Assembly (NCBI GenBank): GCA_019746095.1
Contig: JAIESL010000002.1
Coordinates: forward strand, 100,603 to 164,602
Length of the DNA stretch: 64,000 nucleotides
Source: Caulobacteraceae bacterium
GTDB lineage: Bacteria > Pseudomonadota > Alphaproteobacteria > Caulobacterales > Caulobacteraceae
Direction of reading: 5' to 3'
The translations under genes were made by a program, and so were the position numbers. Shown piece after piece: positions 44,006 through 46,021 of the stretch (position 1 is its first letter; the number at the start of each line of letters is the position of its first letter). Under the pieces are notes generated by a model. It was given only the letters and a program-made list of their open reading frames with translations. It searched no databases and was not told where the DNA came from.

Positions 44006-46021
44006 ATGAACATCTCCGTCACGCCCCCCGCCCTTCCCGAAGAGCCCAATGTCGATCTGGCTCTGAAAGACGCCCGCGAGCAGGTGATGAAGGAGACCGG
44101 CACCATCCCGACCGGCGAACGCGCCGGGTCGCGCAAGGTCTATGTCGCCGGCGAACTCTACCCCGACATCCGCGTCCCCTTCCGCGAAGTGGCGGTTCAC
44201 CCCAGCGCCAATGAGCCGCCGGTGACCATCTATGACTCCTCGGGCCCCTATACCGACCCGACCGTCACCATCGACATCAAGAAGGGCCTGCCCCTGGTCA
44301 AGTCCAGCTGGCAGCTGGACCGCGGCGACATCGCCCCCGTCCTGAACCCGCGCGAGGTCAAGCCCGAGGACAACGGCCACGCCAGCGGCAAGAACCTGGC
44401 CCCCCGTTTCGACACCAGCCGCCACAAGGTCTTCAAGGGCGTCGAGGGCCGTCCGGTCACCCAGTACGAATATGCCAGGGCCGGGATCATCACCCCCGAG
44501 ATGGAATATGTCGCCATCCGCGAGAACCTGCGCAGGGAAGAGGCGAGGGTCGGGGGTCGAGGGTCGGAAGGCGGCTCCATCACCTTCGCCGACGGCTCAA
44601 CCATGCCCTCCCCGAACGCCGCCTTCTCCCCTTCCTCGACCCTCGACCCCCGACCCTCGACCCGCGACGGCGAGAGCTTCGGGGCAAGCATCCCCGACTA
44701 TGTCACCCCCGAATTCGTCCGCTCCGAAATCGCCCGCGGCCGGGCCATCATCCCGCACAACATCAACCATCCCGAAGTCGAGCCGATGATCATCGGCCGG
44801 AACTTCCTGGTGAAGATCAACGCCAACATCGGCAACTCGGCCGTCCTGTCCTCGGTGGACGACGAGGTCGACAAACTGGTCTGGGCCACCCGCTGGGGTG
44901 CCGACAACGTCATGGACCTGTCGACCGGCCGCAACATCCACAACATCCGCGACTGGATCATCCGCAACTCATCCGTCCCCATCGGCACCGTGCCGATCTA
45001 CCAGGCGCTGGAGAAGGTCAACGGCGTGGCCGAGGACCTGACCTGGGAGGTGTTCCGCGACACCCTGATCGAACAGGCCGAGCAGGGCGTCGACTATTTC
45101 ACCATCCACGCCGGCGTCCGCCTGCCCTTCGTGCCGATGACCGCCAAACGCGTCACCGGCATCGTCTCACGCGGCGGCTCCATCATGGCCAAATGGTGCC
45201 TGTCGCATCACCGCGAGAGCTTCCTCTACGAGCATTTCGAGGACATCTGCGACATCATGCGGGCCTACGACGTCTCCTTCTCTCTCGGCGACGGCCTGCG
45301 CCCCGGCTCCATCGCCGACGCCAATGACGAGGCCCAGTTCGCCGAGCTGCGCACCCTCGGCGAGCTGACCAAGATCGCCTGGGCCAAGGGCTGTCAGGTC
45401 ATGATCGAAGGCCCCGGCCATGTGCCGATGCACAAGATCAAGGCCAATATGGATGAGCAGCTGAAACACTGCCACGAGGCGCCCTTCTATACGCTCGGGC
45501 CCCTGACCACCGACATCGCCCCCGGCTACGACCACATCACCAGCGCCATCGGTGCGGCCATGATCGGCTGGTTCGGCACGGCCATGCTCTGCTACGTCAC
45601 GCCCAAGGAGCACCTCGGCCTGCCCGACCGTCAGGACGTCAAGGACGGCGTCATCACCTACAAGATCGCCGCCCACGCCGCCGACCTGGCCAAGGGCCAC
45701 CCGGCCGCCCGCCTGCACGACGACGCCCTCAGCCGCGCCCGGTTCGAGTTCCGCTGGGAAGACCAGTTCAACCTCGGCCTCGACCCCGAAACCGCCCGCA
45801 AATACCACGACGCCACCCTGCCGAAGGAAGCCCACAAGACGGCGCATTTCTGCAGCATGTGCGGCCCGAAATTCTGCTCGATGAAGATCAGCCAGGACAT
45901 CCGCCGGGATGCGGCGGCGCAGAATGATGCGGGGGGTTCGCTGGCGGAAGCGGAGGCCGGAATGGCGGAGATGAGCGCGAAATTCCGGGCCGGGGGTGGG
46001 GCCATTGAGGTGAAGGTGTGA
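44006..46021 (+). CDS. thiC: Phosphomethylpyrimidine synthase carrying an in-frame hairpin insertion
   Basis: [29 protein letters not shown] and CSMCGPKFC motifs. Confidence 0.97.
44544..44659. repeat. Heptamer-armed hairpin element B inside thiC
   Basis: Perfect 23 bp inverted repeat at 44544-44566/44637-44659, plus an inner 9 bp pair at 44567-44575/44618-44626. Confidence 0.92.

Follow-up and report, generated by a model that had tools for sequence, protein, structure and literature searches.

Rickettsia palindromic elements, as reportedly described by Ogata et al. in 2000, are repeats of ~100-150 bp that lie in frame in housekeeping genes and are translated as tolerated surface peptides. 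Two sets of heptamer repeats, GGGAATC in convergent pairs in Xanthomonas and GGGGAYT in Nostoc, come closest among published descriptions to the repeats treated here; they lie mostly within ~50 bp of stop codons in tens to hundreds of copies per genome without a known transposase, are under-represented within coding sequence and have been interpreted as G-quadruplex formers (Rehm et al. 2015, PMC4692102). The present analysis concerns a hairpin built of tandem heptamers that lies in frame inside thiC, the phosphomethylpyrimidine synthase gene, in a stretch of 64,000 nucleotides (hereafter the window) from a Caulobacteraceae bacterium (NCBI GenBank assembly GCA_019746095.1, contig JAIESL010000002.1, positions 100,603 to 164,602 of the forward strand). 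The source genome belongs to Brevundimonas and comprises 3.05 Mb at 67.5% G+C in 138 contigs; its assembly, labelled G000, is 99.7% complete. According to the reading to which we assign a probability of about 0.7, the thiC segment belongs, without a gene of its own, to a family of inverted heptamer-array hairpins spread through Brevundimonas, has replaced a native loop, is translated whole and has arms that evolve in concert.

The hairpin segment of thiC and its reading frame

The thiC open reading frame (ORF) occupies 44006-46021 on the plus strand and encodes a 671 aa product matching PF01964 (ThiC_Rad_SAM, E 5e-185) and PF13667 (ThiC-associated domain). This product aligns with Caulobacter ThiC (structure 3EPM) at 1112 bits, with ~90% identity over the core, and has both the radical-SAM core domain and the C-terminal CX2CX4C cluster motif (CSMCGPKFC) of a ThiC protein. 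Upstream, at 43850-43956 on the plus strand, a thiamine pyrophosphate (TPP) riboswitch was recognized (Rfam RF00059, 64.5 bits vs a gathering score of 54.3), and it was the only match in the Rfam scan of 43000-47000, in which no known RNA family was found over the hairpin.

As delimited by alignments of 30, then 65 ThiC loci, the in-frame hairpin segment measures 126 nt (44537-44662, plus strand; residues E178-T219) and is flanked in the protein by ENLRR on the N side and RDGESFG on the C side. Its G-rich arm (44544-44566, plus strand), a period-7 array of the tandem heptamers GAGGGTC, GGGGGTC and GAGGGTC translated as ARVGGRGS, is the perfect 23-nt complement of the C-rich arm (44637-44659, plus strand), a period-7 array of GACCCTC, GACCCCC and GACCCTC translated as STLDPRPS. 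The loop between the two arms is 70 nt long and codes for part of ThiC. Within it, a 9-nt perfectly complementary inner stem is formed on the same strand by GAAGGCGGC (44567-44575) and GCCGCCTTC (44618-44626), between which lies a conserved centre (44576-44608, plus strand; residues 191-201) showing the motif [IV]T[LF][AH]DG[ST]T in 26 non-redundant inserts. These coordinates are those of the perfect 23 bp inverted repeat with a 9 bp inner stem that the first-pass annotation had placed in frame in thiC. The arrangement is that of an inverted heptamer array as defined here, namely two convergent opposite-strand arrays of at least two tandem heptamers, no more than ~100-150 nt from each other.

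The distribution of the segment was surveyed in 201 Brevundimonas species genomes, 177 of which gave a ThiC match. In ~130 of these 177 species the alignment fell into two pieces omitting query residues 180-216, the signature of a short loop that reads EQ[NT]APCI, then RDGEDFG, while contiguous alignments placed an insert at the same codon in ~46 species (~32 long ones of 35-44 aa and ~15 shorter and degenerate). The insert is consequently absent from most orthologues, as had been supposed. In the Caulobacter structure 3EPM the site reads EQDRPCV (full stretch ENLRREQDRPCVRDGEDFG), in keeping with the about six residues given for Caulobacter in the first-pass annotation, and the other Caulobacterales families have an unrelated ThiC loop of ~10 residues. 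Because the short loop is found in Caulobacter 3EPM as well as in ~130 of the 177 species, the alignments indicate that it is ancestral and that the hairpin allele is derived. The hairpin segment stands in place of the 7-residue EQNAPCI loop, a surface loop that links the ThiC N-terminal domain to the catalytic barrel, with a net gain of 35 aa, and a linked D-to-S change is found four residues downstream of the insert in hairpin alleles. What had been taken for an insertion is thus an in-frame added segment indeed, but one that, on these alignments, arose by replacement of the ancestral loop rather than by pure insertion.

That the segment is an ordinary lineage-specific loop, palindromic through chance low-complexity coding, or an assembly artefact has almost no probability left. 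High-GC genomes do give many GC-rich repeats, yet the arm pattern was found 3 times in the window vs 0.01 expected by chance, and the RNA fold of the 129-nt thiC element reached -81.7 kcal/mol vs -49.2 +/- 4.1 for dinucleotide shuffles (z -7.9), none of the 200 shuffles folding as well. In the source genome, moreover, period-7 arrays (133) are about ten times commoner than arrays of periods 5, 8, 10 and 11 (9, 7, 11 and 14 respectively). An assembly artefact is excluded by the presence of the insert in ~46 independent assemblies, several of them closed; closed single-contig genomes were found in both the insert-bearing and the insert-free classes.

The centre common to the 35 inserts extracted can be written [IV]T[LF][AH]DG[ST]T[VIML]P. 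Across 26 non-redundant sequences T, D and G are invariant, while codons differ without restriction at the third position (GGC/GGT/GGA/GGG, TCA/TCC/TCG, CTG/CTC, ACC/ACT/ACG and each of the four CCN codons). Read from the DNA, this pattern is one of purifying selection on the translated peptide. Since the centre is conserved and its variation is mainly at third codon positions, the thiC hairpin is most likely read through as an added protein loop. The first-pass claim that new protein sequence was created in a TPP-riboswitch-controlled gene is therefore most probably right, given the apparent amino-acid-level constraint on the centre.

Known bypass elements are marked by a strong hairpin within an ORF, and on this ground the thiC segment could be thought to remain untranslated, either by ribosomal bypassing, as in phage T4 gene 60 and the mitochondrial 'byp' elements, or by removal from the RNA. 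However, every thiC insert has a length that is a multiple of three and is stop-free, the thiC frames being open over ~700 codons, and copies within ORFs use stop-free heptamers only. In L129, the single case with GAGGGAT arms, one unit reads GAGGGAA precisely where a TGA would be in frame. Substitutions in the centre are mostly synonymous, and there is no matched take-off/landing codon pair with an adjacent stop. The open frames in multiples of three and the codon pattern argue strongly against bypassing or RNA excision, which we regard as very improbable, and the identification as a programmed bypass element was rejected on the same two grounds, the stop-free multiples of three and the codon-constrained centre.

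An AlphaFold2 model of ThiC, run with a 35-sequence alignment, gave a predicted local distance difference test score (pLDDT) below 50 for residues 180-217 and modelled the flanking helices with confidence; a weak two-stranded beta-hairpin at the conserved centre was the sole structure within the insert. The insert is thus predicted to form a disordered surface loop with a small structured tip.

Arm types and the history of the thiC alleles

Four heptamer types were distinguished in the thiC arms: type A (GAGGGTC/GAGGGGC) in the source genome and six others, type B (GGCGAGT) in 13 sequences, type C (GGGGTGT) in 9 and type D (GAGGGAT) in L129. All four are without stop codons in the frames used. 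Both arms of an insert are of the same type, the 3' arm being always the reverse complement of the 5' arm, and of the 26 long inserts analysed all but L135, which is without a left arm, have a stem of 21-39 bp across the centre; folding energies range from -50 to -83 kcal/mol. As judged from the aligned inserts, the arms evolve in concert, the heptamer type changing between species with complementarity kept. The arm type of thiC agrees with the genome-wide dominant type in G019, G008 and G045 and disagrees with it in G002 and G049. In one further sequence, L021 (G015), the thiC loop reads DTAREWI, much as type-B inserts begin (EVARDEWRV...), and this allele, instead of never having had an insert, may have kept a scar where a hairpin was deleted.

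No excess of G.U pairs was found in the insert stems, which hold 20 G.U pairs vs 15 A.C mismatches. Because G.U is no commoner than A.C, we infer that a strand-symmetric DNA process, and not selection on the sense mRNA, maintains the complementarity of the arms. This bears on the explanation that the hairpin was retained for an RNA-level effect on thiC expression, for example by offering a site to RNase III, pausing translation or stabilising the mRNA, with the peptide as a by-product. Stable stems of 21-39 bp have been kept across at least 30 species despite sequence turnover, and the gene-bearing relatives of the hairpin, described below, resemble the intervening sequences of 23S rRNA, which are excised by RNase III. 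On the other hand, selection on the sense RNA would produce the very G.U excess that is missing, about three quarters of the species are without the hairpin yet have an identical TPP riboswitch context, hairpins of this kind are also found in intergenic DNA and in genes unrelated to thiC, and the centre peptide is under apparent purifying selection. Retention for RNA function is consequently held to be decidedly unlikely, while some RNA-level role or cost of the thiC hairpin, through RNase III or ribosome pausing, is possible.

A thiC DNA tree was built without the insert columns; the ThiC protein tree was set aside because its resolution was too poor. On the DNA tree, presence and absence of the insert require at least 7 changes across branches of >=95% support, and the heptamer types are interleaved, L129 (type D) being sister to L138 (type C) with a Shimodaira-Hasegawa-like approximate likelihood-ratio test (SH-aLRT) value of 99, and L133 (type C) sister to L139 (type B) with a support of 97. 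A single clade of insert-bearing thiC was rejected at a cost of 530 log-likelihood units (approximately unbiased (AU) test, p-AU 1e-24). The insert-free sequences of main-clade Brevundimonas all read EQ[NT]APCI, and at the linked site D was found in 13 of 14 that were examined; this uniformity means that repeated deletion is no explanation for the pattern. The association with the insert fades within ~10 nt to its left and ~60 nt to its right. The simplest reading of these sequences would be a single origin, followed by short-tract exchange between lineages by homologous recombination.

Related hairpins, other in-frame copies and PF05635 genes

In the source genome, 39 array pairs form hairpins with loops of ~30-125 nt, every one of them with its G-rich arm on the 5' side and its C-rich arm on the 3' side. 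In the commonest types, GGGATTA, GTGGCTA, GTGGTTA and GGGCTTA, no frame is free of TAG or TAA. Most copies are no more than ~20 nt away from a stop codon and often occupy the gap between convergent genes, so the thiC hairpin, being inside an ORF, is atypical of the family by location. Only three copies of this genome are truly inside ORFs, in thiC, mutL and uup, and all three use stop-free heptamers. Heptamer types are lineage-specific: triple GGCGAGT is found at 12 loci in G019 and at none in the source genome, and triple GAGGGTC, conversely, at 5 loci in the source genome and at none in G019.

By BLAST against its own genome, the 129-nt thiC element matched other loci through its arms only, in stretches of at most 30 nt, and the thiC centre was found nowhere else. 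The loops of the family are mostly unrelated to one another; about 10 copies of the GTGG[CT]TA/GGTGATT type share the core GCGCCGCCCTTCCGC in either orientation. Copies with this core include those at C54:6461, C58:6461, C65:10061, C79:1453, C79:3111, C79:4058, C97:13353 and C135:40156.

Further in-frame inserts, which the first-pass annotation had proposed to look for, were found in the flexible linkers of MutL (G000 C115:18172-18355) and of the ABC-F protein Uup (G000 C73:9776-9866); these being known flexible linkers, both copies were counted for the tolerance of in-frame hairpins. The mutL centre, GWSGWxGW...PGLNERSARVEP, is common to all 30 Brevundimonas sequences, while the arms around it differ: type A in the source genome, GAGGGAC in G009, type B in G019, G061, G012 and G050, type C in G042, G049, G055 and G045, GGGCTTA-like in G021, present on the right side only in five species and absent from the remaining ones. 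The SAR[VA]E of this centre is found also in the MutL of nine other Caulobacterales genomes without arms. Consequently, the mutL arms enclose native coding sequence, an arrangement that a single contiguous unit insertion cannot produce. Only three genomes have the uup hairpin, of type A in the source genome and in G049 and of type D in G013; in them it takes the place of a native linker of similar length.

These loci weigh on a more conventional explanation, in which a classical non-autonomous unit, such as a miniature transposable element with inverted repeats (MITE) or a Rickettsia palindromic element, was inserted once in thiC and descended vertically, its hairpin being kept by compensatory substitutions for RNA or DNA structure. 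Whole units can spread, as is seen in the ~10 intergenic copies sharing a loop core; the conserved thiC centre fits a single origin; and no more than 1-2 substitutions separate the heptamer types, a single change turning GAGGGGC into GAGTGGC. Against such a unit, the thiC centre is unique in the genome, neither a target-site duplication nor a flanking direct repeat was seen around the segment, where the ancestral 18 nt were replaced and not interrupted, and there is no Y1 (RAYT-type) transposase in the genome. The thiC tree conflicts strongly with both insert state and heptamer type, the enclosure of a native motif by the mutL arms is impossible for a unit insertion, and a stepwise change of 3-5 tandem units on both arms with no visible intermediates is not a likely event. 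We therefore judge insertion of a unit followed by vertical descent to be unlikely. A MITE as such was rejected because of the lack of a target-site duplication, the replaced 18 nt and the failure to identify a parent insertion sequence element.

Under the preferred reading, that of a replaced loop with concertedly evolving arms, the hairpin would have displaced the EQNAPCI loop in one ancestral thiC allele. Its arrays would then have changed by slippage and homogenisation within an array, one arm being copied from the other by intrastrand template switching, with possible conversion of arms from other genomic copies. A template-switch or conversion mechanism is what the arms suggest; intrastrand template switching would also explain arms around native sequence and one-armed intermediates. 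Insert-bearing and short alleles would have been exchanged between lineages by homologous recombination. At the protein level, the 5' arm would give rise to a G/R/E/S-rich and the 3' arm to a P/S/T/L-rich low-complexity disordered linker in ThiC, which presumably tolerates the added loop as neutral, and the tip of the loop would later have come under protein-level constraint as a short conserved peptide.

Some members of the family carry a gene. PF05635 is the 23S-rRNA intervening-sequence protein family, an Avd-like four-helix bundle (FHB; PMC10053308). The source genome has two PF05635 genes, each between inverted heptamer arrays: in the cassette on contig C87 (G000 C87:12174-12639) the gene is preceded by (GGGATTA)n (12174-12199) and followed by (TAATCCC)n (12609-12639), and in that on C130 (G000 C130:44173-44685) it is preceded by (GTGGCTA)5 (44173-44212) and followed by the array complementary to it (44654-44685). 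The two cassette heptamers, GGGATTA and GTGGCTA, are the two commonest types among the gene-less hairpins of the same genome. Altogether, PF05635 genes were found in 34 of 61 Brevundimonas genomes, and heptamer arrays lie within 11-115 nt of 33 of the 42 genes examined, on both sides in 28. The heptamer type tracks the PF05635 protein tree: the five GGCGAGT-flanked genes group, all five of them, although their common branch is not resolved, and the AGGCAGT/AGCAGGC, AGTAGTG, GGGGCTA and GGGATTA groups follow the tree likewise. A PF05635 gene is present in 18 of 19 genomes with the thiC insert vs 12 of 36 insert-free ones (Fisher p 1e-5, uncorrected for phylogeny).

The thiC hairpin itself has no PF05635 ORF in its loop. 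When the loops of gene-less hairpins were compared with the interiors of the FHB cassettes, no similarity was found, which means that the gene-less copies did not arise simply by deletion from the two cassettes resident in the genome. The link between PF05635 and the heptamer hairpins is taken here as one between families and not as a mechanism. As a tentative and rather doubtful extension, PF05635 proteins, each coded in a hairpin of its own type, might recognise the arrays and promote the writing or rewriting of matched arrays flanking existing sequence; that this would happen either directly or through host replication and repair is held with the same reserve. If true, such array writing would make the hairpins a cis/trans system and not transposing repeats of the ordinary sort. 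It would explain the mutL arms enclosing native sequence, the type switching with kept complementarity in thiC, mutL and uup, the tracking of the FHB protein tree by the heptamer type and the occurrence of the thiC hairpin almost only in FHB-bearing genomes, and it would represent a new mode of repeat propagation that also makes disordered protein segments.

In L207 (G017:C12:17389-18406) the gene is preceded by a 110-nt array of ~16 AGGCAGC/AGGCAGT units. G049 has eight PF05635 matches, of which several are incomplete or interrupted by stops and two are separated by ~1.4 kb on contig C6.

A number of results weigh against the reading of a loop-replacing, translated hairpin with concerted arms. 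If pairing were selected for, compensatory substitution too would preserve the complementarity of the arms, and the group compared in the AU test was defined after the thiC tree had been seen. The copies sharing GCGCCGCCCTTCCGC seem, from their common loop core, to form a subfamily that spreads as whole units, as a mobile element would. The thiC arm type equals the type around the PF05635 genes of the same genome in only ~4 of the 10 genomes compared. Whether element loop or older native sequence, the thiC centre is without counterpart in insert-free ThiC. Confidence in the structure model is low over the insert, which makes 'disordered' a prediction, and an mRNA hairpin of -82 kcal/mol could be a substrate of RNase III or a barrier to ribosomes.

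Three other hairpins of the family lie in intergenic DNA of the window. The one at 14361-14460 (element A; GAGGGGC/GAGGGTC ... GACCCTC) is of the same type as thiC, in accordance with the GAGGGTC/GACCCTC heptamer that the first-pass annotation had noted as common to both. It is situated between divergent gene starts (CAT at ~14347, ATG at ~14497), that is in a promoter region, unlike most copies. The census of the own genome added a GGGCTTA-type hairpin at 32000-32110 (G000 C138:132602-132712) and one of the GTGGTTA/GGTGATT type at 38629-38718 (G000 C138:139231-139320). Elsewhere in the genome, a GAGGGTC-type hairpin (G000 C10:2674-2760) lies between an ORF ending in ...LGLNVELENS* and an ORF starting with MNQEVLNIFN...; these resemble the end of rpoB and the start of rpoC, in which case the hairpin may be inside the rpoBC operon.

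Comparison with known systems

Copies of Rickettsia palindromic elements share a full-length consensus. The thiC segment is like them in being a palindromic repeat that is predicted to be translated as a surface loop of an enzyme. It differs in that the Brevundimonas copies have only their arms in common, with no consensus over their full length, and in its tandem-heptamer arms, its type changes between species, its different taxon and the enclosure of native sequence in mutL. The parallel drawn in the first-pass annotation consequently holds for the protein outcome and fails for the nature of the element and its family membership.

The family shares with REP/REPIN (repetitive extragenic palindromic) sequences the character of short, GC-rich, hairpin-forming dispersed repeats, mostly extragenic near gene 3' ends; its arms are tandem heptamers in place of a single palindrome of 20-35 nt, and some of its copies are in frame. 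The REP/REPIN-RAYT model was dropped, since PF01797 had no match in this nearly complete assembly, in which positive controls were matched. A search of the source genome for the reverse transcriptase domain PF00078 (RVT_1) gave none either, so that an origin by retro-copying, or like that of diversity-generating retroelements (DGR), is unsupported there. The PF05635 cassettes, being long hairpins with a PF05635 gene in the loop, resemble the 23S rRNA intervening sequences, whereas the thiC copy is gene-less and lies in a protein-coding gene rather than in rRNA.

The literature searches yielded no account of such hairpins in Caulobacterales, nor any paper that connects PF05635 with heptamer repeats. 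Spanning ~46 species, three genes and four repeat types, the present loci offer a natural series in which a hairpin repeat inside essential or housekeeping enzymes would become protein sequence, with a concerted turnover of arms at a fixed site that ordinary transposition leaves unexplained. For annotation, they call for caution, as low-complexity G/R/S and P/S/T loops of high-GC proteomes can be translated DNA hairpins.

Taken together, the nearest relatives in form are the heptamer repeats of Xanthomonas and Nostoc, to which the Brevundimonas family is akin by its tandem G-rich heptamers, its convergent opposite-strand stem-loop arrays, its tens of copies per genome, its proximity to stop codons and its lack of a known transposase. 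These so far orphan repeats would now be tied to a candidate partner gene in PF05635, an Avd-like four-helix bundle, and two old questions, the origin of bacterial heptamer repeats and the role of the 23S intervening-sequence proteins, are thereby made testable in a genus that is tractable and non-pathogenic. In-frame translated copies, type switching and a partner gene have no place in the published account of the Xanthomonas and Nostoc repeats (PMC4692102). The Brevundimonas family, in contrast, comprises many coexisting types, some without G-tracts (GTGGCTA, GGCGAGT), three in-frame copies, arms that switch type at orthologous sites and copies that enclose PF05635 genes.

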